Part shown: positions 42,816 through 61,172 of the stretch, one piece after another
Layout: each line of letters begins with the position of its first letter
Numbering within the stretch: the stretch's first letter is position 1
From: an uncultured Candidatus Saccharibacteria bacterium
GTDB lineage: Bacteria > Patescibacteriota > Saccharimonadia > Saccharimonadales > UBA4665
Direction of reading: 5' to 3'
Assembly (NCBI GenBank): GCA_964432725.1
Contig: CAYSOP010000002.1
Coordinates: forward strand, 44,354-108,353
DNA length: 64,000 bases
Notes under the pieces: model-generated
Seen by the model: the letters and a program-made list of their open reading frames with translations, nothing else
Told to the model about the DNA's origin: nothing
The model's database searches: none
Translations under genes and position numbers: made by a program

Positions 42816-44501
42816 TTACATTTTGTCAGGTGCGGTAATACCCAGTAAGCTCAAGCCGTCTTTTAATATGTCCGCATACAGCTGGACCAATGTTAGGCGG
42901 GTTGCTTGGCGCGGGTCGCCTACTACCTTGGCATTCTCGTAAAAACGGTTAAACACCTGAGCTAGCTCGTATAAATAGGTACAAATATGATGCGGCATTA
43001 ATTCGTCTAAGGCTTTTTGCAGAACTTCGGGATATTCGCTAATCTTTCGCGCGAGTGCCCGTTCTTGCTGGTCAAGGTCGCTTACCGTGTGGCCTTCGGC
43101 ATTGGCTTTGGCCAGAATACTGCGAGCCCTAGCGTGGGCATACTGCAGGTAGGGGCCGCTGTTGCCTTCTAAGCTCACCGATTCTTCGGGGTCGTAAATC
43201 ATGTCGCCACCAATACGGTGCTTCAAAAAAGCGTATTTAACCGCACCGGCTGATATTTGTAGGTCACTACTGCCGTGCGCTCTAGCATAAGCCTCTTGGG
43301 CAGCTTGTAAGATGTCGGCGGCCTTGGGATTATTACCCTTACGACTGCTCATTTTTTTGCCACCGGGCAAACGAATCATACCGTGTGTTAAATGCACGCC
43401 GCGCCCTGCTAACTCCGGATAAAAATGCTCGAGCGCCTTAACCACTACTTTCATGTACTCAACAATATCGTTGCCGGTAATAATAAAACTTTTGTCAAAG
43501 TGGTAGTCACGCCACTTTAGCGCGGCTAGCCCAAGATCTTTCGCTTCGTATGTTGGCAGGCCGTTAGAATTTATAAAGACTCTCGTGTGCAGTCCATGAT
43601 CTTCGCCTTTAAAGATTATGGCGCCATCAGATTGCTCGAACACGCCATTCTCTATACCCTTTTGGACAATACCGAGTCCCAGGGGGGTTACTTCACTTTC
43701 GGGTATGTATCGTTCAAACGTATGTACGCCTAGCTGGCTATATAATGCATCGAAGCCATCGTAGCTCCACTGGCGGCACGTCCAATAAATTTGGGCAAAT
43801 GGCGATTCGTGGTCGTTCGCAGTATGCAAGTCGTACACACGCTTATTGATCGCAATAATCTCGGCCTTAGCTGTTTCGTCTGATTCATAGGCGGCCGTAC
43901 CCCTTGCATAAAAGGTGCTCAACCAAGCTGGACGTTCGCTTTCCGGTACGGCGTTTAACTTTTCGGGGTGTTCACCGCCCAATTCCTGAATTATCCCCCA
44001 CATTGCCCGTGCCACATGCAAACCAACATCGCCGCCATAATTTACGCGGTGCACTGTAGCGCCCGCAACTTCAAAAAGCGTAGCTATAGCGTCACCAACC
44101 AAGGTTGTATATAGGTGGCCAGCATGCATGACCTTAAATGGGTTTGGGTCAGAATATTCGGCAACTACCACCTTGTCTTTGTAGTTCTGGGGCCGTGTTT
44201 TAGTTGCTACGGCTGCCTGGCTAAATAGACTCTTATCGCTAAGAGCGATGTTAATAAACCCGGGCCCGGCAACGGTTACGTCTTTGACGTCATCGCCAAG
44301 CCGTTCTTTAAGCGCAGCTGTTAGCTGCTCGGCTAGTTCGCGCGGCTTTTGTTGCAGGCGGCCAGCAAGCTGCAAAGCGACGTTAGTCGCGTAATCACCG
44401 AACTGAGGGTCGGGACGCGTTAGGTCGGCCGCTACATCAACTTGATATAAATCATGAATAACGCTCACCAGCGTCTGCTGCATCTGTTCCATTACAGCCA
44501 T
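42816..44501 (-). CDS. argS: arginine--tRNA ligase
   Basis: 561 aa with a HIGH-type 'MHAGHLY', 'KKMSSRKG' and an anticodon-binding C-terminus ending in '...DKM'. Confidence 0.9.
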   Translation of the reverse strand: MAVMEQMQQTLVSVIHDLYQVDVAADLTRPDPQFGDYATNVALQLAGRLQQKPRELAEQLTAALKERLGDDVKDVTVAGPGFINIALSDKSLFSQAAVATKTRPQNYKDKVVVAEYSDPNPFKVMHAGHLYTTLVGDAIATLFEVAGATVHRVNYGGDVGLHVARAMWGIIQELGGEHPEKLNAVPESERPAWLSTFYARGTAAYESDETAKAEIIAINKRVYDLHTANDHESPFAQIYWTCRQWSYDGFDALYSQLGVHTFERYIPESEVTPLGLGIVQKGIENGVFEQSDGAIIFKGEDHGLHTRVFINSNGLPTYEAKDLGLAALKWRDYHFDKSFIITGNDIVEYMKVVVKALEHFYPELAGRGVHLTHGMIRLPGGKKMSSRKGNNPKAADILQAAQEAYARAHGSSDLQISAGAVKYAFLKHRIGGDMIYDPEESVSLEGNSGPYLQYAHARARSILAKANAEGHTVSDLDQQERALARKISEYPEVLQKALDELMPHHICTYLYELAQVFNRFYENAKVVGDPRQATRLTLVQLYADILKDGLSLLGITAPDKM

Positions 44502-44541
44502 TGTAACAGATTGAAAGCATTTCTTATCCCCGTGCCGGACG

Positions 44542-45222
44542 TCAGTCTAACGCTTTTTGCTGGCGGGCGGCACGTATCACATACCAGGCAACAACATACA
44601 GGCTACTTATTAGCATAAAGAAACTAAAGGTAATGCTCATAACTTCGGGGTGTTCTGTAGGGTGCAGCAAACTTTCGGATATCTGGAATAGAATACTGGC
44701 CGGGTTTATCAAGATATCCCAGGTATTCCAGCGCAGCTCGCGGCCAATGTATATAGCAAAGCTAGCAAGTAGCAGTGTACCTGCAATACAGAACCAACTT
44801 GCCCGGATACTCAGGCGTTTACGCAGTTCTACATGCAACATATATATGCTTAAAAGGCCAAGCACGCAGCCATTACTAATAAACGAAAAGAACATAACAA
44901 CATCAAACAGTAGGTCTGCACGTGCCGTCTCCTGCAAATGGATAATATCGGTAATAAGATAAAACGTGTTGGGCAAAAAGGCTAAAAACAGGCCAGTAAG
45001 CAATAGCGCCTGCCAGCTCGACCATAATCTGCGCTTAAGCGTACGCTCTAGTAATAACACAAGACCAAGCGGCACCCAGGCCAGTAACAGATTCCAGTTA
45101 AGGTACCATAGTTCGTTGGAATGGTTTAAAAGCGCACCAACAACAAAAAAGCCGACGCTTATCATACTTGCCGTTCCAAGGGCGATAGCTAGACTCACCC
45201 GCCTAGACACATACCGAGTCAT
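44542..45222 (-). CDS. polytopic membrane protein (DUF1361-like)
   Basis: Six or so TM helices. The family assignment is tentative. Confidence 0.45.
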   Translation of the reverse strand: MTRYVSRRVSLAIALGTASMISVGFFVVGALLNHSNELWYLNWNLLLAWVPLGLVLLLERTLKRRLWSSWQALLLTGLFLAFLPNTFYLITDIIHLQETARADLLFDVVMFFSFISNGCVLGLLSIYMLHVELRKRLSIRASWFCIAGTLLLASFAIYIGRELRWNTWDILINPASILFQISESLLHPTEHPEVMSITFSFFMLISSLYVVAWYVIRAARQQKALD

Positions 45223-45245
45223 ATAGTCCTAGTATACCAGGAGGC

Positions 45246-46289
45246 TTATTTGGCAAGCTGTAGCACCACGGTAAAGCGGGCGCCGCCTGTTTTATTATTG
45301 CTGGCAACTAGGTGGGCGTGGTTGGCTTCGGCAATCGCCTTTGCCAACGATAGCCCCAACCCATAGCCACCGGCCTTACTGCTGCGTGCTTTATCGCCGC
45401 GGTACAGGCGGTCAAAGATATACGGCATATCGGCAGCACTAATCCCCTGCCCTTGATCTTGCACCCATAATGCATAGCCGCCATCTTGTTTGTGGCCGCT
45501 TATCGTAACTGTTCCTTTTTTAGGGCCGTACTTTATGGCATTGTCGATCAAAATACCCAGCAGCTGCACCAGGCTTTCGGCATGCCCCAGCACTTTGCGT
45601 GGTGCGACCTCGCTTACAAGCGTAACTCCGTGTGCATCGGCCTGTTTCTGCATGGACTTTATAGCATCGTGTACCAAGCGTTTCGCCGATACCGATTTAA
45701 ACTCTAGCGGTGCCTGGGTATATTGCGTCAGGGCAAGCAAATTAGTAGACAACCCTTCTAAACGCTGCACTTCTTCGAGGTTGCTATGAATCAGTTCGCG
45801 TGCCTCGGACTCGGTAAAGTTTTTTTGGCGCAAGAATACTTCGTTTTCCAACCGCAAATTAGTAAGCGGCGTCCGTAGTTCGTGGCTGGCGTCGGCAGCA
45901 AAACGGCTTTGGGCTTCATGGGCCTCTTCTATGGGCCTTAATGTTCTACCAGCGAACCAGTAACTAAGCAGACCGCCCAGTACAAGCGAGGCTAAGTTAA
46001 TCAAGAACAGTTCTTGGTTTAAACGCTGGCGCACGCGCGCTTCTTGTATTTGTTGCATGTCTATAAAACTGCTGCTGTCCGGCCGGCCGCTTGCCCAGTC
46101 CGACCAACGCACGATAATATCGTGCAATTCGCTGCGTTGCACCATATTCGACTGCAAATATTCACGCTCCGCCAAAATACGGATGCTCGTAGTAACCACC
46201 AAGCTAAAGCCCACCAGGACAATCAAATAAAAAAACGTCAGCTGCAAACGTGCCGACTTAAACAGTTCCCTATATAACTTTGTACCCAT
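45246..46289 (-). CDS. sensor histidine kinase
   Basis: Two TM segments, H-box 'AADASHELRTPLT', N-box 'LIDNAIKY' and G-box 'GYGLGLSLAK'. Confidence 0.85.
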   Translation of the reverse strand: MGTKLYRELFKSARLQLTFFYLIVLVGFSLVVTTSIRILAEREYLQSNMVQRSELHDIIVRWSDWASGRPDSSSFIDMQQIQEARVRQRLNQELFLINLASLVLGGLLSYWFAGRTLRPIEEAHEAQSRFAADASHELRTPLTNLRLENEVFLRQKNFTESEARELIHSNLEEVQRLEGLSTNLLALTQYTQAPLEFKSVSAKRLVHDAIKSMQKQADAHGVTLVSEVAPRKVLGHAESLVQLLGILIDNAIKYGPKKGTVTISGHKQDGGYALWVQDQGQGISAADMPYIFDRLYRGDKARSSKAGGYGLGLSLAKAIAEANHAHLVASNNKTGGARFTVVLQLAK

Positions 46290-46926
46290 GGCCGCGCACC
46301 GTCTGGATTATGTCGTCGCCTATTTTTTTGCGCAGGTTGGCTACAAATGTTTCGACTGTATTGTGTTGCACGCGTGCTTCGTCCGACCACACATGGTCGA
46401 GTAGCTGGTCTTTACTAATAACCTCGCGTTTGTAGCGCAGCAGATATTCAAGCAACTGAAACTCTTTTGCGGTTAGATGCACCGGGCGCTCGGCAACGCT
46501 CACTTCTTTGGCAACAACGTCCAGCTTAAGCTTGCCAGATGTGAACACATTACCAGTGCTGGCTTTTGGCCGGCGTAATAGTGCACGCACTCTGGCCAAT
46601 AACTCATCGAATGAAAACGGCTTAGGAAGATAATCGTCGGCGCCAGCGTCTAGGCCATGTACGCGGTCGCCAATAGTAGTACGGGCGGTCAGCATTAATA
46701 TAGGCATTTGCCCGCCGTGCTCGCGCCAGTGTTTAGCAAGCGCCGGGCCATCGTAGCGGCCAGGAATCATCCAGTCCAGTAATACTAGGTCGTATGCCGT
46801 TGCTTCGGCCAACGCGACTGCTGTGTCGCTGTCTTCTGCGGTATCGACAATATAGCCTTCGCTGGTCAGACCCTTTACGAGGCTGCGTGCAATTTTCTCT
46901 TCGTCTTCGACAACCAATAATCTCAT
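46270..46926 (-). CDS. OmpR/PhoB-family response regulator
   Basis: Receiver 'RLLVVEDEE...DLVLLDWMIPG' plus winged helix 'LTAKEFQLLEYLL...TVRGHGY'. Overlaps the kinase gene by 20 nt. Confidence 0.9.
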   Translation of the reverse strand: MRLLVVEDEEKIARSLVKGLTSEGYIVDTAEDSDTAVALAEATAYDLVLLDWMIPGRYDGPALAKHWREHGGQMPILMLTARTTIGDRVHGLDAGADDYLPKPFSFDELLARVRALLRRPKASTGNVFTSGKLKLDVVAKEVSVAERPVHLTAKEFQLLEYLLRYKREVISKDQLLDHVWSDEARVQHNTVETFVANLRKKIGDDIIQTVRGHGYKVI

Positions 46927-47004
46927 ATGTTCTATTATAGCGTTTTCCCTGAAGATATGACGTAGAAAGCGTCGGAGGGCTATCTAGCTCTTTCTGCCTC
47001 CCGC

Positions 47005-47193
47005 TTACTCTTGTGAGCGCCTGCGTAGGTCGCGTACTGCGTCCAGCACTACCTGCCGGGGCACCACAACTATAATCTCGCCGGGTTCGAGCTCTCGATG
47101 CAATGGACCACATTTGGGCCGGACAATAGCAGGGTCTACTTGCGTGCCAATAGCCGCTATAAATTCTGACTCTTCTGCTGAGCTTCCTGCCAT
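47005..47193 (-). CDS. small hypothetical protein (62 aa)
   Basis: Begins 2 nt after the stop of 47196-47417. No motif. Confidence 0.3.
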   Translation of the reverse strand: MAGSSAEESEFIAAIGTQVDPAIVRPKCGPLHRELEPGEIIVVVPRQVVLDAVRDLRRRSQE

Positions 47194-47195
47194 GT

Positions 47196-47417
47196 CTATA
47201 CCTTGTCAGGCATATTAACTTCCGGGGGAACAGATTGCGCTGCGGGAGGCGTTGCCTCTACGGCTTCGCTTATCACCCGCTGTGCCAAATTTCCGAGGTT
47301 TAATGTACGAGCTACTTCCCTTGGCACGACGAACAAATCCGGACACGTACAATTGGTTGCGCTCCTCAGATCGCCCTCACGTCGACTGGGCGGCGTACCT
47401 AAGCGAATTAACTCCAT
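47196..47417 (-). CDS. small hypothetical protein (73 aa)
   Basis: Strong AGGAGG SD 9 nt upstream of the ATG. No motif. Confidence 0.45.
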   Translation of the reverse strand: MELIRLGTPPSRREGDLRSATNCTCPDLFVVPREVARTLNLGNLAQRVISEAVEATPPAAQSVPPEVNMPDKV

Positions 47418-47473
47418 ACAAGCAAGCCTCCTAATAAAATTAGTATAACCCAGCCTGGATAGATTTACAGAAG

Positions 47474-47533
47474 CTAGCCAAGCTCCTTCTTGAAGGCTTC
47501 TATTAACACCACCGGCGCAGGATTAAGGCCGTT
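47474..47533 (-). repeat. direct repeat DR-L: displaced copy of the last 19 codons plus stop of the PGI/PMI gene
   Basis: 58 of 60 nt are identical to 56642-56701. Both differences are synonymous in the PGI/PMI frame. Confidence 0.9.
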
Positions 47534-47733
47534 AATAATCGGGGCACATGCTTACTGAGTAGCCGTATTTAGTGACCGGCTAGTAATTCACAATTGGCCT
47601 ATCTGTTTAGGGCCTGGCCCCTAAAACCCCTGCCGTTCCAGTATTTTCTTGCTGTAGATTACGTAGAAACAAAATTATGCTTGAGGCAATAAAATATAAT
47701 TAGCGCGATAGAATCACATCTTCACTCTCTGGC

Positions 47734-48330
47734 TTAGTTCTGATCTCGCAATTCCCTGTTAGTTCCACTAGAGATATTTGCGAATGGGGTAATTGCTTCA
47801 ACTGTCTTGAGGTGACGTCGACGTATTTGTTCCTTCAGGCTATCAATATTTTTGATGGTTTTTTTCATACTAAAAAACGAAAAAACCATCATCCCTAGAA
47901 TAAAGACACTACAAACGACTAGAATCTTGCTAACCATAGCTCCGTAAAGTATGCCCATAAGGCCTATACCAGTCATTGTCGGTAATGACTTCTTTGATAT
48001 GTATAACTGCAGCTCGGCCTTCTCAATATATGCGGGCATGGCTTTCGCGAGCCTTCGTTCTCTTGGAAGGGTGCCCTTTTTAAAATAATCCAGCAACTTC
48101 CAGTCTTCGTTTGTACGTGCCATTCCTGGCATCTCATTAATTTTTTTCTTCATTATTATACCCATTGGTACGCCAAAACCTATGGTGGCAAATATGAAAA
48201 CCGGCCACAAAAACGGTCCATTGCCTATATTCGCCATGAGGGCACCAAATGGTAAGCCGTTTAATGCGACAGCTACGGGTATAGAGTTAAGAATGTAGTG
48301 TATCTTTTGTCTACGAGTGGCATTAGTCAT
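47734..48330 (-). CDS. polytopic membrane protein (candidate orphan immunity protein)
   Basis: 198 aa with 4 predicted TM helices. AT-rich codon usage unlike the backbone genes. Confidence 0.55.
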   Translation of the reverse strand: MTNATRRQKIHYILNSIPVAVALNGLPFGALMANIGNGPFLWPVFIFATIGFGVPMGIIMKKKINEMPGMARTNEDWKLLDYFKKGTLPRERRLAKAMPAYIEKAELQLYISKKSLPTMTGIGLMGILYGAMVSKILVVCSVFILGMMVFSFFSMKKTIKNIDSLKEQIRRRHLKTVEAITPFANISSGTNRELRDQN

Positions 48331-48458
48331 CGCTGATACTATACCATAAAAATTACATTTAAGCCAGAAGAGCGTAATGACTCACCGCCTTCGCAACATC
48401 CAAAAAGCCGACTGTTCTACACTGTAAGTTACCACAACTAAACAGGAGAACAGCCGGT

Positions 48459-48835
48459 ATGAGCTATTCTAGCCAATCCTTTACTACCAAAGGCGAGAGC
48501 CGAGGCGGTACGCTTCGTGGTCGAGCGTAAGCTACCCGTCTTGGTAGCTGCTCGTAAGAGCGGTATCCACCGCACCACACTCTGGCGCTGGTGTAAGCAG
48601 TGGCAAAAGCTCAACCAGAACGTCCAACTCACCAACGACAACCGGCCAGGACGAGGCACGGCTACTGCCCGGTGTGCCAGTGGCGCCTAGCCGCCTGCTC
48701 TTGGCGTATCCCCACCAGAAGCAGCCGGCCTCGTCGTTGTAAACATGCGGTAAGCGAAGCGGTCGTAGACCGCATCCACTACTACCGCAAGCGGTATGGC
48801 CGCTGCGCGACCATTGTGCATGCCTACTCTAGCCT
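48459..48835 (+). pseudogene. frameshifted and truncated transposase N-terminus (HTH plus IS481/IS3-type linker)
   Basis: AGGAG SD precedes the ATG at 48459. In a +1 frame it reads 'ARAEAVRFVVERKLPVLVAARKSGIHRTTLWRWCKQW', and in the third frame 'PTRSSRPRRCKHAVSEAVVDRIHYYRKRYGRCATIVHAY'. No catalytic domain follows. Confidence 0.6.
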
Positions 48836-49038
48836 GCTTTTTTACCAAAAAGGCGATGAGCCAGAATGGCTTATTAATGAGGCTATTCTTGCACAGTTCC
48901 GATCACGAGAAGAGTATATGAAGTTTGTGAGTGATTATGAAGCGCACAAACTTATACTTGAGGAGCTTAGGCAGGAGTTGGCGGACGTTTAATTGGTAGA
49001 CGACTTATCTATTTTGGGAATGTCCTCGGCGTTCCCTA

Positions 49039-49407
49039 CTAAGGCTTAATGATCAAATCATTCTTTTTAAATAGATAGTAGATAAGTGAAAATGTTATTA
49101 AAAATCCGATTGCACTAAGACACACTATAAATAGAAGTTGCCCCGTGACAGACTCTCCATACTTATCAAGGATGTTTTTTATATCAAAGATTGTCTTCAC
49201 AGCCACCAGCAAAGCCAGAATTTGCGCGATTACGAACCTTTTAGTGCTAAGGAGCGTCTCAAGTTCTTTATATCTCGGACTCTTTTTGTACTTTGCTATT
49301 AGTGCCTTGCGCTTCAATCTAAGGTAAATCGTCCGTGAGATAAATAGCACTAGAGTAAAAAGAATTGTAATCTCAAATAAGAAAGTGAAATTTTCATTAG
49401 GCTGCAT
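49039..49407 (-). CDS. three-TM membrane protein, candidate cognate immunity protein of the RHS toxin
   Basis: 122 aa, AT-rich, beginning 60 nt downstream of the toxin stop on the same strand. Three hydrophobic helices. Confidence 0.5.
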   Translation of the reverse strand: MQPNENFTFLFEITILFTLVLFISRTIYLRLKRKALIAKYKKSPRYKELETLLSTKRFVIAQILALLVAVKTIFDIKNILDKYGESVTGQLLFIVCLSAIGFLITFSLIYYLFKKNDLIIKP

Positions 49408-49467
49408 TTTACGGACTCCTTAATTTATAGTACACATTTTATAAAAATAACGTTATTTTATCAGATA

Positions 49468-52400
49468 TCATAGGTGAAACGGATTAAGTACAGACCATGG
49501 TGCACCGTCAAGATCATCTGCCCTATCTGAGCCTGTCCAGCCGTAGTAAAATCCTAGGCCAAAGCCAACAACCCCTCCTGCTGCCCAGCCAACCCCACCT
49601 GCCGCTATACACCCAGCACCTGCGAAAACCATACCTATACCGCAGCCCGCTGTCCCGAAGACTACTTGACCTGCAGTAGAATAGTTAGACCCGGTATTAA
49701 TCCCATTATATAACCTGAACCAATTGGATGGTCCTGTTGTCGGTGCTGGATTATAGCTATTGGACCCTTTCGGCAATGCGCTCAAATCACCAAGGATAGG
49801 ACTAACGTGCGTCGGTTTTAAAGCCAGTTGCAAAATTATTGCGATCGGTAATGAGGGCGATCTAGGCACTGTTACGGCGCTTCTAACCGCGCCAGGCCCC
49901 TGAATAGTGATCGTATTCGCCACCGGCCTAAAAACAGGCGGATTAGGCTGCATCTGATAGCTATTTATCACTACAATACTGGTCTTGTAACCACTGCTGT
50001 TTATAACGCCAAGCATCCCGCTATAGTCACTCCCATTCACCGGATCAAGTACATACGTATACGCATTCAGTACACCCCCTTCTACTGGGTCTACTTGGGT
50101 GAATCTACCAATACTTGGGAGGTATACTCTTGCACCCATGGATATTGGAGTTAGGGCAAAGGATGTCTCACTCAGTTTGCCAAGTTTACCGGCCCAGGCG
50201 TAGGAACCGCTGGCTGCGGTGTTGCTGGGGTAGGTGGAACCCGTTAGGATGTTACCGAAAGGGTCGTAGGTGAAGGTGTTTGCGGGGCCGTTACCGGTGG
50301 AGGTGTTTGTGCCTGCAGCGTCGGTAGTTATAAGGGTGTGGCCGTTTATACTAGCTAGGCTGTATTGTTTTTGGGCATTGCCGGTTTGGGTTGGCTTAAT
50401 AGTAAGGGATACACCGCCAGGCAACGATATGTTCTTTTCGACTATTGCCCAACTGCTATCGCGGACGTAGTCGGCACTATCGCCACTGCCCGTGTAGTGG
50501 TAAAACCAGCTGCCTGCCCCGGCCCAACTGCCGTTGGTTATAGTGTTCTTGTAGCGGCCAATAACGCGGCCCTGCACATCGCGGTCGTAGTACATGCCAA
50601 CGCCTGTGTTACTGGAGTTGTACTGTTCGTAGCCAGAGTTGCGGTCTGAACTGTCATAGAATAAATGCAGCGGTGTGGTGCCGGTACCAATCTGGGTCAT
50701 GTTGCCGTGGGCGTCGTAGGTTGGGTTGTCGTACAGCGCATTACTGCTATCTATTAACTTGTCGGCATAGTCGTAGCAAAAGTACGTAGTGACGCCGTTT
50801 ATTGTTTGGCTGGTGCGATTGCTGTTTTTACCGGAGTTGGGATTTTTGTTGTTACCGGTGCCGCAGGTAGTTGTATCTTGCGCGCCAAAGCCATATGCAA
50901 AGCTGTTACCGCCAATTGTTGTGCTGGTTAGGCGGTCGATACCGTCGTAACTGTACGTAGACCACAGGTCGCCGCCGGCGCTGGCGACGATGTCGTTCTG
51001 GATACGTCCGGACTGCGTACGGTTTACGGTATTGCTTATTGTTGTGGTGCCGTTGCCCATACGGTATGTCTTAGAGCTAAGCCGGCCCAGGTTATCGCGG
51101 CCATATGTAATCCGCTGCTGGCCAGCACTTGGGTAATCTATGTAGTCGGCACGACTATATGAGTCGTAGTGAACGGTTGCGTAGGTAACCGTGTCTAGTT
51201 TTTGGTCTACTAGCCTGCCGTAGGTGTCGTAGGTAAACGCCTCCGTGCCCATTGGGCTGACGCGTTGAGTTACACGTCCGTAGGTGTCGTAGGTTGTGGT
51301 CGTTTCGTCGTCGTATACATCGCGGTACTTTGTTGTACGGCCCAGTAAATCTTTCCAAACTACAATCCAGCCACTGCCATCCCATGTGGTTGTTACGAGT
51401 GGACTGCCGCCGACAGCGTAGTCGTTTTGAATAGTACGTGCTGCTGCGCCGTTGAACGCAGGAATAGTAGTCTGAGTCACGCGGCCACGAGTATCGTACG
51501 CGGTACATGTCCAGCTATCTGCATTGTAACGGGCAGCCACTACCCTGCCAGCGTCGTCGTAAATGACTTCGCTGGTTCGGCCGGTTTGCGAGCTTGCGCC
51601 GTCTGGATCTGCCTCGGTTTTAGTCTTTACGAATCCGCCCTGTTTGTAAGCTTCGGTCGTACCTGTCGTACAGGGATTGTCTTTGGTGTCGGTAGCGCCA
51701 TAGTAGGCGTAATTTGTCGTACCGCCACCGGGCAAACTTTTGGTGAGTTGGCGAATATAGCTGCCCGTAGCGCCCGGCGTTTCGTAGGTTGCAGATGTGG
51801 TGAGGTTTAGACCTGTAGGATCAGCACTCGTGCTTTGGGCTAAGCCTAATTCTGGGCTGGTGCCATAGTTTGTAGTTACTGTATTGTCGCCTAGCGTCCC
51901 GTCGTACGACTTCGCGGTAGTATTCAAGCCATAGCCAGGCTTTAGCTTAACGCCAAGGGCGTCATCGCCGGTTCCTGGATTAGCGTTAACCGCAGACATA
52001 TACAGCTGAAGTTCTGCGTTTGTATTACTTGCCGACGCGTCGTAATACTCCAGGTAAAACCTGTATGCCTTACCCGCTTCTAGCTGTTTCGAGCCAGCAT
52101 GGCTCCGCCACACGCCATTGTTCCAATCGCCTGCAATAAGCTGGTCGTCTATGTACAGCCGAGCGCCGTCGTCGTGGTAAAGGTGGAAGGTGTAGTTGCC
52201 GGTAGTAGGTACACGTAGCTTGCCGGATGCCCGTAGACCCCAGCCGTCAAAGCCGCTACCGATAGTAACGGGCGGCGTTGTATTCCATGCCTTATGCATC
52301 GTGCCAGGCGACGTGGTATCTATGCCGGTAGTTCGCAGCTTTGGTGCGCCAAACAGCACTTTGTTTGTTGCTTTGTAGTCGAAGTAAGTAACTTCTGGGC

Positions 52401-55400
52401 CTACTATATTTTCGTCGTAGGCACTATCTGCGCGTGGCACTTGTGCGACATATGTCGATGTTGGCTTGCGGTCGGGGCCAAACCAACTTGCGGGTGCTAG
52501 CCCGTAACCTTCTATTGGCCTGTCTTCGTCGTCATAAATTGTGGTCGTTTTAAAACTTGCCGGGTCGGTTACGGAAAGTACCAAATCTTTGTCTGGATTC
52601 CACTCTGTTGCAGTAGTCAGGTTAGTGATGTCGGTATGCTCGACTACGCGTAATAAATTATCGTACTTAATGCGCTGCACAAAACCATTTGGTTCGGTTA
52701 AGCCAACTACGTGTTGTTTTGTAATACCTGCGTAGCCTGGAACATTGTTGCCGCCTGAGTCCACGTACCCCTTAACGCCTGGCAGATATTCTATAGTGTG
52801 TTCCACGCGCGTAGCGGTTGCTGTTGCCCCTGGCTGTTTAACGCTTGTTGCGCGCCCTAAATCATCGTAGGTAAGTTCAGTTTTTACCGTAGCGTCGTTT
52901 GTGCGAACGCCTGCGGCTACTGCATCGTTGGCAAGCGCATCTCGCAACCAATTAAGCCTATAGCCGATGGTTACGCCGCCGCTCTGCACTGCTTCGTAAC
53001 CGTAATCGAACGTCTCGCTCCCCGGCGCAACCATACGCGCCAGCTGCTTATTGGTGTAGTAAAAGTACGTTGCACGTCCATCATTTGTTTTTACCGCACA
53101 GAGTAAGTCTGCGGCAAATATTGCAGTGTCAAAACCGCTTGGTGGCGTGGCGCACTCGGTGCTGCCATAGTAAAACACCTTTGCCCATCGTGTATTATCC
53201 ACTCCGTCAGTAATTTGGCTAATGCGTGCTGGAGTTCCTTCGTAAGTGTAGTTTAGCGCAGCTGGCCTACGGTCATCTTTGGGAGTGGTCAAACTTTTTA
53301 GAGTGCCATCTACGTCAAATATATATGTTCGCCCGTCTTTATCTAGCAATGTATGAGTACCGTCGGTATTGCGAGTAAGCTGGCCGTCTTCATTAGCTGG
53401 TGGTTTATATACGCTACCTGCTGTATAGACATACTCATGGGTCGCACCACTCGCGTCGCTTAACACAGCAGTAGAAGGAGTGACTGTTAAGTGGTCGTAT
53501 GCCGCAGCACCACTAGGGTCGACGCCTAGGTTCCAGCCGTCCGGCATTGATTGCACTCCTGGCGTTAACCACGACCTAGGAACAATCTGCTGTGGCACCG
53601 CACCCTGCACTTTCAGCACAAAGCTAGCCGCTCCGGTGTTGTCATAATACTCGATGGTAATCTTGGTTGGCGTATCTGCCGTCAGAGAGTAAGCCGTACC
53701 GTAGCTTTCGGTCGCACCCCTATCCACCCACTCGTTATATACAACCGTGTTTGAGTTACCGAGCATGATCTTTACGCCGTCATCGCTTTTTACGCCGAAT
53801 GTATAGTTACCGGTGGCCGGCACCTTAACGAATCCGGTCCAACGGACTAAGAAACCGTCAGGACCATTTGGAGTAGGCGCAGCCGTACCCCAATCAAAGT
53901 TAAGGTAAGGATCAGTGCGCTTCATCATAAGCGTATTGCCAGATGAGAACGTATTAGTGCCATCGAACTTACCATAGTAGCTACCCACCAGGCCATAAGG
54001 GTCCTCTACTGGTCGCACGCCCGTCTGCAGCCATTCGGCCGGTATTACCTGCTCTGTTACCGGGCCTTTAACATACAGGTGTACATAGGCTGGTGAAGTG
54101 TGTTCTCTAAATTCAGTTCTAAATTTAATCACCTGCCCTTCTTGCAGTGTTATGGACGACCCGTAGCACACGCCCGTGTAGCATCCACCACTTGTGTATA
54201 GCTGTGTGTCGTTAAGATAAATAGCCATGTAGTCGTCGTGATTACCGCCAAAGTAATACGTGCCAGTAGTTGGCGCAACAAAGTAGCCTTGCCACCTAGC
54301 ATAAAACCAATCGCTGTTTGCTATGCCCGGCGAACCCATTCCCCAGTCAAAATCTACCTTTTGATCTACACGCGTAAGGTCGGGCGTAGCGGTTGGCGCG
54401 CCCCCTGAATAATTAGTAGCTACATTCCAGTACTCGCCCACCAGGCCGTTACGCGACCGCAGCGGCGAATTGTAATCAAGATTTACACCTAAACTGCCGC
54501 CACTTGCCGCCGACGTATGACTTGCAGCACCAGTTGTCACATTGCCTGATGCCAGATCAACACTTACCGGCCCGAGCGTGTCGTAAGTTTGTGTTTTATC
54601 TTTTCCGGTACGCATATCAATCCGGAATGGAACTGAGGCACCCCACCCACTGTAAGTCGCTGTAATAGGGTCGTAGCTGCGCGCCTGAACATAGTACGTC
54701 GCCCCGTCTTGTAACATATGGTCAGGTATAGTCCACTGGGTTGAGTCCAGTAAGCCGGAAGGCACTACTACGCCTGTAGCACTTGACCCACTTGTAACTA
54801 AAATCTCGTACTTAAGCGGCGTACTACCATTGGGGTTATCTACCGTATTAACACTAAACGAGGGTTGTGGATCCACATACACCTGGCCTGACGTAGGCGT
54901 CTTCATGCTAGGCGCAACCGGTGGCCCACCATACGTGAATGTTACATAGCTGGCAGGCGTTTGCTCTGTACCCGGATCAAAATTCTTAAACGAATGGTCG
55001 GTGCCATCGTTGCCGCCAATCATAAGCCAGGCACCGTAGTCGCCAAGTGCTAGCCGTGAACTATAAATATCTGTAACGTCAATATCGCCAGACGACGTTA
55101 CACTGCCCGAGTCATTAAATGCACCGCCGTCCAAACAGTTATAGCTATTCAAGCACGAAGCATGCCCCGCATAAAACGTATGCGTTCCCCAATCGCCAGT
55201 CCAGAAACTCTCATTACTGCGCTGTACTAAATGCAATTTGGCCTGGATTAAGCTAGTACCGCCCACACGAAACTGATCATATGGCGCAAAAAACGCAGAG
55301 CGCCAAGAGCGAAGTGTGGGGCCTGGATCGTACAACGTACCTGCGTAAGGATTACATACGTTGGAATAACAAATATATCCGTCGTTTTTAAATGACATGT

Positions 55401-56550
55401 AATTACCGCCAGCTCGCGTACCAAACCGACTATTAAAGGTCGTCGGGTCGATTACGGCCGGGAATGCTTTAGCTGGCAAACCCTGTAAATAGTCACGAGC
55501 TACGCTTACTGCTACCCTATTCGATGTATGCGACTGGGTAAGTATGCCCGATTGAGTCACCTGGCCAAATTCATTCAAAATTAAGTTTGGTGGGGCGATA
55601 GCAAATTCATTATTAAATACACCCTTCAGTACCAAAGAAGGTGCCAAATACTCACCTAGTGATTGCTTTTCTAAAGTCGCGCCAACAACATCAAATGCTA
55701 TCTGATTAGTTGCTGTTTTATTTTTAAGAATAATGTTCTCTTTAATTGATCCCGTGCCTACCAAGTATTCAACATTAACACCAGGCCATAAGTCGTAATA
55801 ATGCACAATCTGCCGCCCGTCCTCTGTGCGCGTAATGACTGGCGCAACTTCGGAAGCCCCGACAGGCACAAAGCCAACTTGGTCATTTCCCTGCTTTATA
55901 CGCACCATTCCCCGGCTAGAGTCGCTAGGCGAAAACCTTGCCTGCCAATCATTGTCTTTAACCATAAAGTTTGTCGTCGACGATACCCAAGATTGCGCCG
56001 CTCCAAATGCCCTGCCAAATACCGTGCCGGCGTCTCCGGCATTTTTATCTTCTACAAGTAATGTATCGATATCTGTCCACACACCACCCTTTTGGAAAAA
56101 CTTAGGTGCAAAGTACTGCTTTGTAGTGAGCGTACCGTCGGCATTAACCGAAGTTGTAGTGGTGGCAGTCCGCTTATTAGTCAATTCATGGGCTTGTACC
56201 TTTGGCTTTTGCTTAAGCTCGTTCAGGGTCTCACTAGACACTGACCTTTTTCCTATCTGATCTACTGTCGTTGGATTGGTGGGTTGAGCATCGGCTGCAG
56301 CTTGTTCGTTAGACGTTACTATGGGCGTAGCGCCAGGGTAGTTCTGCTGCATAGGTGTTGTCGTATCGGGTGGCGTACCTTTGACGTGCGGATTTATCTT
56401 AACTGCCTGGCTAGCGGCATACGCCGATGCCGGTGGCACCAACATACTGGCTACAAATACAGTCAAAAAAGACAGCGCCAGGATGCGCCGTAGCAGTATG
56501 TTTATTTGGATTTTTATATTTAATGTAAGCCCCGACGGTCTGCGCAGCAT
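49468..56550 (-). CDS. secreted PA14-domain / RHS (YD-repeat) polymorphic toxin, WapA-like, 2360 aa
   Basis: GGGGAG SD. N-terminal TM/signal '[22 protein letters not shown]'. Three PA14 modules (aa ~701-832, 851-985, 1385-1520; for example 'GLVGEYWN...DFDWG...[19 protein letters not shown]'). Many YD repeats ('YTYDxxGR', 'YDxxGR'). RHS core end '[31 protein letters not shown]', followed by a 182-aa C-terminal module. Confidence 0.85.
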
Positions 56551-56606
56551 AGGTACTCCCCTTGTTTACCCGTACTATATCGTAAGGTTTGCTGGGGAAT
56601 CATTAA

Positions 56607-56636
56607 CTATTTATCATATTTGCATATGATAAATAG
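56607..56636. terminator. 13-bp AT-rich perfect palindrome at the island/PGI junction
   Basis: CTATTTATCATAT-TTGC-ATATGATAAATAG, 5 nt downstream of the PGI/PMI stop. It could be a terminator, an operator or a recombination site. Confidence 0.35.
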
Positions 56637-56641
56637 AATGC

Positions 56642-56701
56642 CTAGCCGAGCTCTTTCTTGAAGGCTTCTATTAACACCACCGGCGCAGGATTAAGGCCGT
56701 T
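56642..56701 (-). repeat. direct repeat DR-R (3' end of the PGI/PMI gene)
   Basis: Partner of 47474-47533. Confidence 0.9.
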
Positions 56702-57676
56702 TAACAGCCCAAGGTACACGCTTACGAAGTCGCCATACGCAATAGTCCATAGTAAGTGTTCCAGGACAGTCTCGCCCTCGGCCTGCACCACAATTGGTTC
56801 GGGACGTTTGCCAGACAGCATACGGGCACCTACCTCAAAACGCCGTTGTACACGGGGGTGCTCGAGGTCACTGCGCAGGTCTATAACTGCATACGGCTTA
56901 TCACGAGGTTGTTCGCTCCAACCCGGTAATTCATTGTGGTCAAATTCTGGCAATTGCCCGGCCCAAGCTACCTGCTTGGCGTTTTCGTTGATGCTAATTT
57001 TCCATTTATAAGCAGCGGCAAATTGATGAGGGCCACCATACACAACAACCGATTTACCCAGCAACTCTTGGGCTAATTGCTTGGCTGGATTATTGGCAGT
57101 TGGCACCGTAGGCAGCCAGGCCTCGCTGGCTTTGTCGACAAAATTAGCTGCCGTGGTAAGTTCTGCAAATAACTGGTCGCCCTGTAAAACGCCCGCTTGC
57201 TGCAAAATAATTAAAAGCGCCTTAAAGTTAGCAAACATGGCGTAGCGGGGCTGGTCCACTTTTGGCACTTGAATAAACGGATAGTTCTTTTGGGTAGCAA
57301 TTTCTTGCAGCTTGCCACCGCTGGCAATAACGGCTATTTGGGCGCCTTTTTTAGCCGCGTCTTCTAGTGCGCTGACCGTCTCCTCTGTATTGCCCGAGTA
57401 ACTAGACACCACAACCAGCGTGTTGCCATTTACATAGCTTGGCAACGTATAGTCGCGGACTAGTTCGAACGGCTTCGGCAGCGTCGGCCACGTATGCACA
57501 AGCTGTCCGGCAAGCGCCGACCCGCCCATACCGGCATAGACAATAGTATCTATCTGGCCGAATGCAATCGTACCGCGTACCGGCAAATCCATCCGTAATT
57601 GTTCTGCTTGTTTGGCAATAATTCCCAGCGCGTCTTGCGCATCAAGTTCGTGTATATTTTTTAAATCGTCCAACAT
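56642..57676 (-). CDS. bifunctional phosphoglucose/phosphomannose isomerase (SIS domain)
   Basis: 'YAGMGGSALAGQL' and 'LVVVSSYSGNTEET' SIS motifs. The ~340-aa length is typical of the PGI/PMI family. Confidence 0.75.
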   Translation of the reverse strand: MLDDLKNIHELDAQDALGIIAKQAEQLRMDLPVRGTIAFGQIDTIVYAGMGGSALAGQLVHTWPTLPKPFELVRDYTLPSYVNGNTLVVVSSYSGNTEETVSALEDAAKKGAQIAVIASGGKLQEIATQKNYPFIQVPKVDQPRYAMFANFKALLIILQQAGVLQGDQLFAELTTAANFVDKASEAWLPTVPTANNPAKQLAQELLGKSVVVYGGPHQFAAAYKWKISINENAKQVAWAGQLPEFDHNELPGWSEQPRDKPYAVIDLRSDLEHPRVQRRFEVGARMLSGKRPEPIVVQAEGETVLEHLLWTIAYGDFVSVYLGLLNGLNPAPVVLIEAFKKELG

Positions 57677-57761
57677 AAAATGATTCTACTCACCTTCCCT
57701 TAAAAAGCTTGTGCTATAATTGGGTCATATCATAATACTATAGTATTTTAGGGGGAAAGAT

Positions 57762-58250
57762 ATGTTTGGAGGGCGCACAGAAGCCACTCAACCAGGGGAT
57801 GACACGAGCGTAAATACGGTAAGCCCGTCTATTGATGCTCCGTCCGATCCCGCACCGGCAGCCGCTGCGCCACCGGTCATGGACAGCCCCGCGTTCTTAC
57901 CCGCCCCTACCGACGCCGACGTAGCCGCACCAGCAGCCCCCTCTGCCAGCGCACCTGTCGTGGCCGCCGCTAGCGATGACGACCTACTTGGTATTAAGCA
58001 ACAAGCATTGCAGCAACTTTCGCCACTTGTTGGCCACCTAGACCAAACCCCCGAAGACAAATTTCGCACAACCATGATGATGATCCAAGCCTCCGACAAC
58101 CAAGCACTTATCAAAGATGCCTACGCTGCCGCAGGACAAATTAGCGACGAAAAAGTGCGCGCCCAGGCCTTACTAGACATCATCAACGAAATTAACTACT
58201 TTACCCAGCAAGGTCAAAATAACACAACGTCTACTGACAGCGTTTCGTAA
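57762..58250 (+). CDS. hypothetical protein (Ala/Pro-rich N-terminus, helical C-terminus)
   Basis: GGGGGAAAG SD. 162 aa. Confidence 0.55.
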   Translation: MFGGRTEATQPGDDTSVNTVSPSIDAPSDPAPAAAAPPVMDSPAFLPAPTDADVAAPAAPSASAPVVAAASDDDLLGIKQQALQQLSPLVGHLDQTPEDKFRTTMMMIQASDNQALIKDAYAAAGQISDEKVRAQALLDIINEINYFTQQGQNNTTSTDSVS

Positions 58251-58741
58251 TGCATTTACCTAGCCTTCCTCGTTTTATCCCTGTGGGGCCAATTCGTCGC
58301 CGCCGGCTAGAGCAAGTGGCACAACTACGTGCCGAAGATGCTAAATTGCAGGCCGCACGCCGTGCACGGCTGGCCGCTAAACGCGCAGCAGCACGCCCTT
58401 CTACGGTCGTAAAATCTACCCACCTGACTAGTAAACCAATACACCACCAAACAATGCATACCCGTCCGCCGCATAGTACGCACTTAGCACGTACTGCCGC
58501 CCCACTTCATACACCCACACCGCCAAAAATAACTACGCCGGTCACACAATCTACGCCGCAGCGTGCTATGCCTACACCAGCGTATTCACAGCCAGAATCG
58601 GCCATGCCGGCAAGCCCGCAAACTCCAATAATGCCGTCAGCCCCCTCACCCACAATCGCTAACAACGTTTCGCGTGGACGTGGCACCTATGCAAACGACT
58701 TTAGTCGGCGCAACAGTTACGTTGCACAACTCTCGAGATAA
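58250..58741 (+). CDS. hypothetical basic, Pro/Thr-rich protein
   Basis: TAATG stop/start overlap with the preceding gene. Followed by an intrinsic terminator. Confidence 0.5.
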   Translation: MHLPSLPRFIPVGPIRRRRLEQVAQLRAEDAKLQAARRARLAAKRAAARPSTVVKSTHLTSKPIHHQTMHTRPPHSTHLARTAAPLHTPTPPKITTPVTQSTPQRAMPTPAYSQPESAMPASPQTPIMPSAPSPTIANNVSRGRGTYANDFSRRNSYVAQLSR

Positions 58742-58760
58742 TAAGTTAGATACAGAGGGC

Positions 58761-58793
58761 AAAAAGACCGGGCTCACACACCCGGTCTTTTTT
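58761..58793 (+). terminator. intrinsic terminator
   Basis: AAAAAGACCGGG-CTCACACA-CCCGGTCTTTTTT. Confidence 0.7.
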
Positions 58794-58947
58794 CCATGCA
58801 TGTTTGTTTGATCTTATTGTACCAGACCCATTAGATGCCCATGCAAGCGCTACAACTATTACTTTTCCCGGCTCCCGTACGCTATACGCTTATACAGACC
58901 TACCACGGACCGGGAAGACCAACATAAAAATGACCGCATAAAAAAGC

Positions 58948-58995
58948 ACAGATACCAAAAAGGCGCTCGCTGGCGGGCGCCTTTTTGGTATCTGT
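58948..58995 (-). terminator. intrinsic terminator of groES-groEL
   Basis: ~18-bp stem ACAGATACCAAAAAGGCGC / GCGCCTTTTTGGTATCTGT, followed on the minus strand by GCTTTTTTAT. Confidence 0.75.
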
Positions 58996-59031
58996 TCCGC
59001 TAATAATGCGGTTCGACTTTAGCTAAGGAAG

Positions 59032-60690
59032 TTACATCCCCATCCCGCCCATAGCAGACATATCTGGCATGCCACCGCCACCAGCGTCTTTCTTTTCGGG
59101 CACCTCTACAACCAGCGCACCCATAGTAATACTGGTGCCAGCAATAGATACGGCGTTCAATAGCGCCTCTTTGGTTACCCGAGCTGGGTCAACAACACCA
59201 ACAGCCTTTAGATCGACTAACTTAGTAGGACTGTTAACATCTACACCAAACCCAGGCTTGGCAGCACGGATTTGCGGCAACCACTCGTCGGCGTTAAGGC
59301 CAGAGTTATCCATAAGGATCCGGAATGGCTGTTCCAAGGCCCGGTACAAAATACCTTGGCCGGCAGCTACAGAATCGTCAGCGGCCTGGGCAGTTGCCTT
59401 AACGGGCTGCAAGTTTAATAGGGTTACGCCGCCGCCAGGCACTACACCCTCGCTTAATGCGGCCTTAACGGCAGCAACGGCGTCGTCTACCCTAAACTTC
59501 TTTTCTTCAATTTCGGTTTCGGTAGCACCGCCCACTTTAATAACGGCAACTTTACCACTAAGGGCTGCACGCCGCTTTTCTAGTTGTTCACGGTCGTACT
59601 CGCTGCTGGCAGCATCAATTTGGGCATTTATTTGCTTAATACGAGCCGCTAGTTCAGACGGCGCGCCGCCACCCTCGATAATAGTAGTGCTGTCTTTTTG
59701 TACAAGCACCTTGCGGGCAGAACCAATCATGCTCAGCTCGGCATTGTCGAAGGTGTAGCCTAGGTCTTCGCTAATAACCGTAGCGCCAGTTAGTACAGCA
59801 ATGTCGTCTAGTATTTCGCGGCGGCGATCGCCGTATGCAGGCGCCTTAACAGCAACCGTATTAAATACGCCCTTTAGACGGTTAAGAATTAACGTACCCA
59901 GTGCTTCGCCCTCTACGTCCTCGGCAACAATAACAAGGTCTTTCTTACCAGCCTGTGCCAGCTTTTCGAGGATTGGCAAGATCTCTTGGATAGAACCAAT
60001 CTTTTTGTCGGTTACCAAGATAGCTGGCTTGTTGTACACCGCTTCCATGCGGGCAGTATCGGTTACCATAAACGGACTTACAAAGCCGCGGTCAAAGGTA
60101 AAGCCCTCTACTACTTCGCTTTCAAGAGTTAGGCCCTGGCCTTCTTCTACGGTTACCACGCCCTCGCGGCCCACTTTGTCCATAACTTCTGCAATCAGGT
60201 CACCAATTTGCTGGTCGCCGGCGCTAATAGTTGCAACTTCGGCGATCCGGTTCTTCTTGCCTTGAATTTCTTCGCGCATGCCTTCTAGCTTAGCCAATAC
60301 GTCCTGCGAAGCGGCCTCGAGGCCCTTTCGTAGTAGCATGGGGTTGTGACCGGCAGCAATAAGCTTATTGGCTTCGTTTAGGATGTGGTAGGTCAAAACC
60401 GTAACGGTTGTAGTGCCATCACCGGCAACGTCATTCATTTTAGAAGCGGCTTGCTTGATAAGCTCGGCGCCAACTTTGTAACCCAGTGTTTCGTCGTCAA
60501 CGTCTGCAATCTCGACACCCTTAGCAACGGTTACACCATCGTGGGTAACAGTAGGCGCACCGTAGCCTTTGCCAATAACGACGTTGCGTCCCTTAGGCCC
60601 CATAGTCGTCTTAACTGCGTTATATAAAATCGCTGCACCGCCAAGCACACGCTTGCGGGCGTCGTCGTCATAAAATACTTTCTTTGCCAT
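59032..60690 (-). CDS. groL: chaperonin GroEL
   Basis: 552 aa with 'AVKTTMGPKGRNVV', 'AGDGTTTVTVL' and a C-terminal GGM tail. Confidence 0.95.
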   Translation of the reverse strand: MAKKVFYDDDARKRVLGGAAILYNAVKTTMGPKGRNVVIGKGYGAPTVTHDGVTVAKGVEIADVDDETLGYKVGAELIKQAASKMNDVAGDGTTTVTVLTYHILNEANKLIAAGHNPMLLRKGLEAASQDVLAKLEGMREEIQGKKNRIAEVATISAGDQQIGDLIAEVMDKVGREGVVTVEEGQGLTLESEVVEGFTFDRGFVSPFMVTDTARMEAVYNKPAILVTDKKIGSIQEILPILEKLAQAGKKDLVIVAEDVEGEALGTLILNRLKGVFNTVAVKAPAYGDRRREILDDIAVLTGATVISEDLGYTFDNAELSMIGSARKVLVQKDSTTIIEGGGAPSELAARIKQINAQIDAASSEYDREQLEKRRAALSGKVAVIKVGGATETEIEEKKFRVDDAVAAVKAALSEGVVPGGGVTLLNLQPVKATAQAADDSVAAGQGILYRALEQPFRILMDNSGLNADEWLPQIRAAKPGFGVDVNSPTKLVDLKAVGVVDPARVTKEALLNAVSIAGTSITMGALVVEVPEKKDAGGGGMPDMSAMGGMGM

Positions 60691-60714
60691 AAAATGATGT
60701 TCCTTCTTAATTAA

Positions 60715-60743
60715 CTGAATCCTGAGTCCGTCCTCAGGATGAC
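60715..60743 (-). repeat. GTCAT...CAG hairpin repeat, copy H7 (groES-groEL spacer)
   Basis: The minus strand reads GTCATCCTGAGGACGGACTCAGGATTCAG. Confidence 0.75.
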
Positions 60744-60749
60744 GAACTA

Positions 60750-61016
60750 TTACTTAAGTGTTGCTAATATATCTTCTTCTTTTACAAGCAGATAGTCTTT
60801 GCCATCTACTTTTACCTCTGTGGGGCTGTAGCTCTTGTATAAGATACGGCTGCCGACTTTAACTTGGGCAACGCCCGGGCCGACAACAACAACTTTAGCA
60901 ATCTTTGGTTTTTCGGTAGATTTTTCAGGTAAGTAAAGTCCGCTGGCAGTTTTAGTTGGCGCCTCTTCGGGCTCGGCTACGACGTAGTCGCCTAACGGTT
61001 GTATGTTTGCACTCAT
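60750..61016 (-). CDS. groS: co-chaperonin GroES
   Basis: 88 aa with 'IQPLGDYVV', mobile-loop 'TASGLYLPE' and 'YLLVKEEDILA'. Confidence 0.9.
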   Translation of the reverse strand: MSANIQPLGDYVVAEPEEAPTKTASGLYLPEKSTEKPKIAKVVVVGPGVAQVKVGSRILYKSYSPTEVKVDGKDYLLVKEEDILATLK

Positions 61017-61055
61017 GCAGTACTATCCTCCTCGTTACGTTCTATGGGTTAGACG

Positions 61056-61082
61056 TTGGCACTTACATGTTGTGAGTGCTAA
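61056..61082 (-). promoter_or_regulatory. CIRCE-like HrcA operator
   Basis: The minus strand reads TTAGCACTC-N9-AAGTGCCAA, against the consensus TTAGCACTC-N9-GAGTGCTAA. Lies 40-66 nt upstream of groES. Confidence 0.7.
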
Positions 61083-61095
61083 CGCGTCAGCACTC

Positions 61096-61125
61096 ACTAT
61101 ACCCAGGCGCCAACTTTACTGTCAA
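61096..61125 (-). promoter_or_regulatory. candidate sigma-70 promoter of groES-groEL
   Basis: The minus strand reads TTGACA, an 18-nt spacer, then TATAGT, immediately upstream of CIRCE. Confidence 0.55.
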
Positions 61126-61172
61126 GCGCTGCCCCATACACCAACAGATATAGATCCGGGCTATTTGAAAAA

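Follow-up and report, generated by a model that had tools for sequence, protein, structure and literature searches.

A candidate integrative island carrying an RHS toxin gene at the 3' end of the phosphoglucose/phosphomannose isomerase gene of a soil Saccharimonadales bacterium

Introduction

One precedent for an element lodged in the 3' end of a protein-coding gene is e14 of Escherichia coli, whose presence in icd leaves a 163-bp duplicated gene end, icd' (PMC6379469). In streptococci, cis-mobilizable elements (CIMEs) of 1.2–13 kb, which carry cargo and lack an integrase, occupy the 3' ends of fda, rpsI, and rpmG (PMC7563491). The subject of the present analysis is a 9.1-kb island of comparable design found in a stretch of 64,000 nucleotides (contig CAYSOP010000002.1, positions 44,354 to 108,353, of assembly GCA_964432725.1; referred to here, at its full length, as the window). 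The source organism is a member of the Saccharimonadales (Saccharibacteria/TM7) from soil. The island lies immediately behind the gene for a bifunctional phosphoglucose/phosphomannose isomerase (PGI/PMI), is bracketed by direct repeats of the 3' end of that gene, and consists mostly of a single large gene of the PA14/RHS family of polymorphic toxins. The interpretation favored here, with a probability of roughly 0.45, is that of a defective, CIME-like integrative island of site-specific origin, with att-like flanks and without an integrase.

The locus shares features with four kinds of described system, and departs from each of them. As with e14 and phage 21 in icd, the 3' end of a housekeeping gene is the target, a replacement coding end is supplied, and a non-coding gene end lies at the far junction. 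Element e14, however, is a defective prophage with its own integrase and excisionase, whereas here neither a recombinase nor a phage gene is present, and a repeat of 60 nt bounds a cargo that consists of an RHS toxin locus. CIMEs and decayed integrative and conjugative elements (ICEs) are likewise cargo islands that lie between att sites within the 3' ends of housekeeping genes, a glycolytic one included, and are devoid of integrase or transfer genes; unlike the present island, they are recognized through related ICEs or integrative and mobilizable elements that share the att site, often in tandem, and no such partner was found in the window or at the approximately 150 related loci described below. 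Islands that enter tRNA genes by means of P4-type integrases show the same run of identity between the crossover and the terminus of the gene, the same restored gene, and the same bounding direct repeats, but the target here is protein-coding, the window holds no tRNA gene, and there is no integrase. Rhs/YD polymorphic toxin loci have in common with the island a large RHS shell, an Rhs-associated core, a variable tip, and a small downstream gene; their classical rearrangement, however, duplicates pieces of rhs, whereas in this case it is the neighboring PGI sequence that has been duplicated.

An earlier note on this DNA, made from the sequence alone, had singled out integration into a protein-coding 3' end as notable. 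This was overstated, given that e14 in icd, and both ICESt3-type ICEs and CIMEs in fda, rpsI, and rpmG, are known. The footprint of the island is a textbook one, here in a poorly explored phylum. Full-text literature searches returned no paper on att-flanked islands or Rhs loci in Saccharibacteria.

The Duplicated 3' End of the PGI/PMI Gene

The two direct repeats, designated L and R (Table 1), align without a gap and are identical at 58 of their 60 positions. By chance, a match of at least 58/60 anywhere in the 64-kb window would be expected with a value of ~5e-23, and no other long direct repeat was found between 44 and 60 kb of the window. Read on the minus strand, both copies encode NGLNPAPVVLIEAFKKELG followed by the stop codon, these being the final 19 codons and stop of PGI/PMI. 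The two mismatches, AAG/AAA (Lys) and CTT/CTC (Leu), are both synonymous, and 47 nt within the repeat form a perfectly identical core. Identity ends exactly at the stop codon; beyond it, the similarity between the two flanks is not significant (z of 1.1–1.75), though suggestive by eye. No inverted repeats were found at the ends of the island.

Repeat R, the right-hand copy, is the true 3' end of the intact PGI/PMI gene, the 344-aa product of which was identified by PF10432 (2e-42), by its SIS domain, and by TIGR02128 (217 bits against a cutoff of 213.9). The C-terminus of this protein has the same length as those of its orthologues, and the gene is full length and in frame despite the insertion. 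Repeat L, the left-hand copy, is an orphan. On its upstream, gene-proximal side, a weak homology to PGI extends for a further 35–40 nt, with 19 of 25 positions matching and an indel of 2 nt (z = 4.1; the score was reached by two of 2000 shuffles). This decayed arm corresponds to the PGI codons for YGDFVSVY. Its 2-nt indel breaks the frame, it contains non-synonymous changes, and a Tyr replaces the Asp of the GDF motif, which is kept in nearly all orthologues. The orphan is thus bipartite, its last 60 nt being 97% identical to PGI and the preceding ~35–40 nt only ~76%. When compared with the PGI ends of 149 relatives, the 60-nt block reaches no more than 75% identity; the near-identity of the two copies is hence specific to this lineage and does not reflect general conservation. 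A donor lineage was also sought for the decayed arm, which proved to be equally distant from all of the PGI genes compared.

Table 1. Coordinates of the island, its bounding repeats, and the adjoining host genes (window positions)
Feature	Position	Strand	Basis or remark
Histidine kinase	45246-46289	-	Pfam, synteny; spans 45246-46926 together with the response regulator
Response regulator (OmpR-type)	46270-46926	-	Pfam, synteny; with the histidine kinase follows PGI in relatives
Host-side spacer with two small open reading frames	46927-47473	-	73 aa at 47196-47417; 62 aa at 47005-47193
Repeat L, orphan PGI 3' end (attR-like)	47474-47533	-	Non-coding, no start codon upstream
Decayed PGI-like arm, island side of orphan	47534-47575	-	~76% over 25 nt, 2-nt indel
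Gene for 198-aa membrane protein (memb198)	47734-48330	-	GC 0.41; 200 nt before decayed arm and orphan
IS481-like transposase stub (helix-turn-helix), frameshifted	48460-48992	+	Stub ~48460-48830, fused to unrelated AT-rich reading frame tail
Gene for 122-aa protein (memb122)	49039-49407	-	Three transmembrane segments; 60 nt downstream of RHS gene
Variable C-terminal toxin tip, aa 2180-2360 (181 aa)	49468-50013	-	Follows Rhs core
PA14/RHS polymorphic toxin gene (2360 aa, 7083 nt)	49468-56550	-	Pfam PA14 1.7e-46, RHS_repeat
Island head, spacer from PGI stop to RHS start, 91 nt	56551-56641	-	Holds palindrome 56607-56636
Repeat R, gene-proximal junction (attL-like)	56642-56701	-	Last 19 codons and TAG of functional PGI
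PGI/PMI gene (344 aa)	56642-57676	-	PF10432, SIS, TIGR02128; last 60 nt are repeat R

A Lineage-Specific Insertion in a Conserved Neighborhood

The neighborhood was compared with that in 79 species-representative genomes and on 71 metagenome contigs (~150 loci), relatives at the species to order level with PGI identities of at most ~76%. The order GroEL-orf162-PGI-(response regulator-histidine kinase)-DUF1361-ArgRS is kept across these Saccharimonadales loci and, in many of them, the response regulator or DUF1361 gene begins only 9–120 nt after PGI. An RHS gene follows PGI in none of the ~150, and a second PGI 3' end was found at none of the 79 genome-collection loci scanned. On account of these two observations the 9.1 kb is, as judged by synteny, a lineage-specific insertion. 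Where the gap behind PGI is longer in relatives, it holds a cupin mannose-6-phosphate isomerase, a classical PGI, a PIG-L deacetylase, or an ABC transporter; neither mobile elements nor an integrase were found in the post-PGI gaps of the ~150 loci.

The conserved block occupies positions 42816–60690 of the window and begins with GroES/GroEL; it is syntenic order-wide, with the response regulator and histidine kinase present in part of the lineages. The slot behind PGI is itself variable, spanning 0–5 kb and often containing a gene for a 147-aa cupin of the mannose-6-phosphate isomerase type or for a second, classical PGI. All genes of the neighborhood lie on the minus strand, the IS481-like stub of the island excepted. 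The spacer between the orphan and the response regulator, which includes orf73, gave no signal of homology to the post-PGI spacers of relatives, and its two small open reading frames (ORFs; 47005–47417) have neither a homologue in the related loci nor a family match. An older insertion into this position may have left them behind.

The junctions themselves were examined in other assemblies. A contig of a metagenome-assembled genome at NCBI (L081), assembled with k = 141, is 99.92% identical to positions 53546–61386 of the window, and it runs through GroES/GroEL, PGI, and repeat R into 3 kb of the RHS gene with the single-nucleotide variants of the R type. Two Logan contigs from SRR9179560 (L082 and L083) are 100% identical to the window at the orphan-side junctions, and they break only inside the 47-nt core with an overlap of 30 nt, the behavior expected of a graph with k = 31. 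In addition, the database record of a 116-kb NCBI contig that holds memb198 agrees with the window contig. Were the arrangement a chimera, PGI would be followed directly by orf73 and the response regulator, and the RHS block would reside elsewhere or on a free circle, the two having been cross-joined at the 47-nt core. That short-read graphs do break at this core, where both Logan contigs end, speaks for such an error, but the k = 141 contig reads from PGI through repeat R into the RHS gene, the window contig and the 116-kb record are concordant, and the two copies of the repeat differ at two positions and have unrelated flanks. Duplication by the assembler is excluded by the two independent assemblies, and a chimeric join is very unlikely, to the point of deserving almost no weight.

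These comparisons also settle much of what the earlier note had put forward. Its description of 58/60 direct repeats with the last 19 codons, the stop, and synonymous mismatches agrees with the gapless alignment, and its reservation that the repeat might be an assembly duplication is disposed of by the three contigs. It had further allowed that relatives might share the gene order without repeats and with a vertically inherited cargo; no relative with the cargo behind PGI exists among the loci compared. The empty site that it had proposed to look for is present in the sense that PGI runs directly into the response regulator or DUF1361 gene at many loci, but none was found at the strain level.

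Proposed Mode of Integration

The organization of the two junctions suggests how the island could have been acquired. An incoming circular DNA would have carried the PA14/RHS locus together with an attachment site of ~95 nt resembling the 3' end of PGI; the match to the host gene would have been confined to the final 60 nt of this site, which end with the stop codon. A single reciprocal (Campbell-type) crossover within the 47-nt identical core of the chromosomal PGI/PMI gene would then have generated three products: a hybrid, functional PGI comprising the host body and the element-borne end (repeat R); the 9.1-kb insert; and the displaced host 3' end, which would remain as the non-coding orphan (repeat L) behind the old, unselected, and decayed arm of the element. 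The responsible enzyme was most likely a site-specific recombinase of the tyrosine type that has since been deleted or that acts in trans. The element would now be fixed, or movable only with help. Its cargo would constitute a toxin/immunity module in which the RHS shell would be secreted and would deliver a membrane-active C-terminal tip, with the protein of three transmembrane segments as the probable immunity factor.

Several lines of evidence argue for this scheme. Firstly, neither uniform decay after insertion nor simple allelic divergence can explain an orphan with two such different parts, whereas an element arm joined to a fresh host end can. Secondly, the termination of the repeat at the stop codon, the synonymous nature of the mismatches, and the lineage specificity of the block all agree with an element-borne end that was kept to restore the coding sequence. 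Thirdly, the fusion of the IS481-like stub to the tail of a foreign ORF points to deletions inside the island, which makes the loss of an integrase plausible. The atypical codon usage and GC content of the tip, memb122, memb198, and the N-terminal part of the RHS gene may also be counted in its favor, as may the relocation of RHS homologues among chromosomal sites described below.

The bipartite orphan likewise bears on a quite different possibility, namely additive gene replacement by a linear fragment from another strain that extended from PGI through RHS to memb198. Homologous recombination would have occurred upstream and an illegitimate join made ~100 nt ahead of the stop codon of the resident gene; the orphan would then be what is left of the former resident allele, with its final 60 nt homogenized later by gene conversion. 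Natural transformation is known in Saccharibacteria, and the lower identity of the orphan beyond the 60 nt could, taken alone, reflect allelic divergence. However, to place 97% identity beside 76%, this route needs an additional and unlikely conversion between repeats of ~100 nt that lie 9 kb apart. It also has to accommodate a decayed part that is frameshifted and altered in the invariant GDF motif while the adjacent 19 codons remained untouched, and none of the relatives has an RHS gene behind PGI to serve as donor. Additive replacement is therefore regarded as quite improbable.

Other routes of acquisition were considered and rejected. A composite transposon of the IS481 type does not account for the locus, as terminal inverted repeats are missing, the duplication is a 60-nt gene end, and only a frameshifted helix-turn-helix (HTH) stub is present. 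For Tn7-like insertion, an analogy raised by the SIS-domain gene as target, the defining features of an attTn7 system are absent. An element that exploits Xer recombination at dif (IMEX) was set aside because the repeat has no dif-like palindrome and the GC skew does not turn over: the repeat is coding sequence without the two inverted arms of ~11 nt and the 6-nt spacer of dif, and the cumulative skew shows no turnover in the region of the island.

The RHS Gene and Its Relatives

The RHS protein begins with an N-terminal signal or transmembrane segment, which is followed by three PA14 domains, YD/RHS repeats, and an Rhs-associated core at aa 2095–2179 (TIGR03696 Rhs_assc_core, 6e-13; PF05593 and TIGR01643 also match). 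The tip behind the core has neither a Pfam match nor a homologue in the searches conducted, and hydropathy reveals a hydrophobic stretch of the glycine-zipper type at approximately aa 2296–2321. No orphan rhs fragment occurs at the window locus. Codon usage along the island is a mosaic, with correlations to that of the host of r = 0.60 for the first 700 codons of the RHS gene (GC content at third codon positions, 0.45), 0.46 for its tip, 0.31 for memb122, and 0.62 for memb198. This mosaic suggests that recombination has occurred at both ends of the RHS gene, beyond the swapping of tips.

More than 120 full-length PA14/RHS homologues were found with identities of 45–58%, and those with names are mostly from Saccharimonadales. 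Seven of their loci (L084, L085, L086, L158, L159, L160, and L161) were inspected, and they have seven different genomic contexts; three of the seven are on the same contig as the PGI of that genome, yet far from it. In each case the RHS homologue is followed by small ORFs, several of the loci also having orphan Rhs core-tip repeats. With homologues at seven positions in seven contigs, the PA14/RHS gene evidently relocates between chromosomal sites, and the PGI-end footprint is unique to the present genome among the RHS loci compared.

Individual loci of this set have features of their own. Downstream of the RHS homologues of L085 and L086, direct repeats of 300 nt of their own RHS 3' core form classic orphan Rhs tip arrays. 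At L161 a gene of the Barstar family follows the homologue, which implies an RNase-type tip in that protein. The closest homologue (P0001), encoded on L158, has a divergent gene for a PF05638 protein (Hcp of the type VI secretion system; L158:7220–7801) upstream; the rest of this contig, at 52% GC, encodes PheRS and further housekeeping functions, and an Hcp would be unexpected if the contig derives from a Saccharibacterium. A homologue from the actinobacterium Allorhizocola rhizosphaerae (P0040) is as close as the best ones of Saccharimonadales (52–58% identity), and that of L160 resides on a contig of 60% GC with neighbors of actinomycete type (HTH_31/DUF5753, DUF397). These last two cases hint that Saccharibacteria have exchanged the RHS family with the phylum to which their hosts usually belong.

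Evidence Regarding the Recombination Process

A number of observations weigh against a site-specific origin of the island. None of the island ORFs matched an integrase, excisionase, or other recombinase, nor did a Pfam scan of 48 ORFs of 150 aa or more across the window reveal one. Searches of genome, metagenome, viral, plasmid, and phage collections provided no element with the same attachment site, no attP form, and no strain-level empty site, and the metagenomes furnished no PGI relative above ~76% identity. At 47 nt, the perfect core far exceeds what a tyrosine recombinase requires, and its length is sufficient for RecA. The codon usage of the central core of the RHS gene is host-like (r = 0.905 against a host mean of 0.84, SD 0.06). 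Finally, bracketing direct repeats, a PGI fragment, and a nearby integrase are absent from all seven of the other RHS loci, from which it follows that the RHS family is not generally carried on an element of this kind.

Further searches concerned the element itself. A wobble-degenerate pattern of the 47-nt core had no hits in JGI metagenome contigs and IMG/VR, and hence no attP-like context was recovered there; the tail of the island had no match to plasmids and phages. Profile scans of the island ORFs matched no relaxase or transfer gene. The non-RHS DNA of the island amounts to only 1.9 kb, and among the remaining window ORFs of 150 aa or more Pfam recognized only housekeeping genes, such as those for EF-P, SSB, FtsK, RNase J, PNPase, Pol I, DnaG, two sigma-70 factors, and ArgRS. 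The same profile scans confirmed each of the contents that the earlier note had assigned to the island, namely the gene for the RHS protein, a pair of AT-rich genes for membrane proteins, and a decayed transposase, along with the lack of an integrase. Its reading of the flanks as the attL/attR footprint of site-specific integration fares less uniformly: the insertion, the duplicated 3' end, the intact frame, and the att-type geometry stand, but the integrase is putative; neither a recombinase nor a related element was found.

Much of this evidence would suit the host RecA protein, acting on a circle with the same one-crossover topology and on an island that never possessed an integrase. The circle could, for example, have been DNA that circularized after uptake, or one excised from a conspecific by means of the repeats, and the exchange would have used the identical stretch of 47–60 nt. 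The perfect core is longer than the minimum commonly cited for exchange by RecA, recombinase genes are missing both from the island and from the ORFs scanned in the window, the lineage specificity of the block is what DNA of a conspecific donor would show, the RHS core is compositionally native, and RHS homologues occupy many sites without integrases. RecA leaves unexplained, however, the origin of a circle that bore a decayed PGI arm together with a perfect 60-nt PGI end. Moreover, the stopping of the repeat at the stop codon suggests long-term selection on an element-borne gene end, and none of the seven other RHS loci has a comparable footprint. An origin through RecA is hence viewed as somewhat unlikely, if worth serious consideration.

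A broader proposal is that RHS loci of Saccharibacteria could move between chromosomal sites as integrase-free cassettes, each with a short copy of the 3' end of a housekeeping gene, and restore the invaded gene end through host recombination after DNA uptake. This generalization is considered improbable.

Other Features of the Island and the Window

The head of the island contains a perfect palindrome with arms of 13 nt and a center of 3–4 nt, CTATTTATCATAT gca ATATGATAAATAG, 6 nt past the PGI stop codon. No second copy was found at the opposite end of the island or elsewhere in the window. The palindrome is a possible terminator and, equally, a possible protein-binding site; promoter and terminator scans gave nothing above shuffled sequences.

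Of the two small genes for membrane proteins, memb122 has the lowest GC content of the region (0.35) and no family match in profile scans. It is presumed, from its position only, to encode the cognate immunity factor of the RHS toxin. The second, memb198, is possibly an orphan immunity or accessory gene. By tblastx it weakly resembles an ORF that follows the RHS homologue on L086, and a homologue search recovered one protein at 46% identity in an unrelated and uninformative context. The transposase stub matched NF033577 (transpos_IS481, 2.7e-6) over profile positions 2–52 of 284 only, in addition to HTH_23 and HTH_Tnp_1; a three-frame translation established that the DDE catalytic domain is absent.

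Outside of the island, the window contains two full-length sigma-70 genes (regions 1.2–4) within 9 kb, at positions 28345–29535 and 36835–37986. The second of these adjoins dnaG, which may be compared with the classical rpsU-dnaG-rpoD arrangement.

Significance for Saccharibacteria

The ways in which the ultra-small, host-dependent Saccharibacteria gain accessory genes are very poorly known. The locus described here provides a clean, dated-looking case in which a toxin gene of 7 kb was added beside a core gene of sugar metabolism and left that gene undamaged. The RHS toxin is probably used against competitors or hosts, and no two of the genomes examined had its PA14/RHS family at the same chromosomal position. 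With no active mobility machinery in the island, the value of the finding is descriptive: it offers a reference point for work on gene flow among populations of bacteria of the Candidate Phyla Radiation (CPR) and not a new mechanism. Should RHS loci in fact travel as gene-end-restoring cassettes, the island would represent the first clear footprint of that route and the first att-flanked island to be described in a CPR bacterium.

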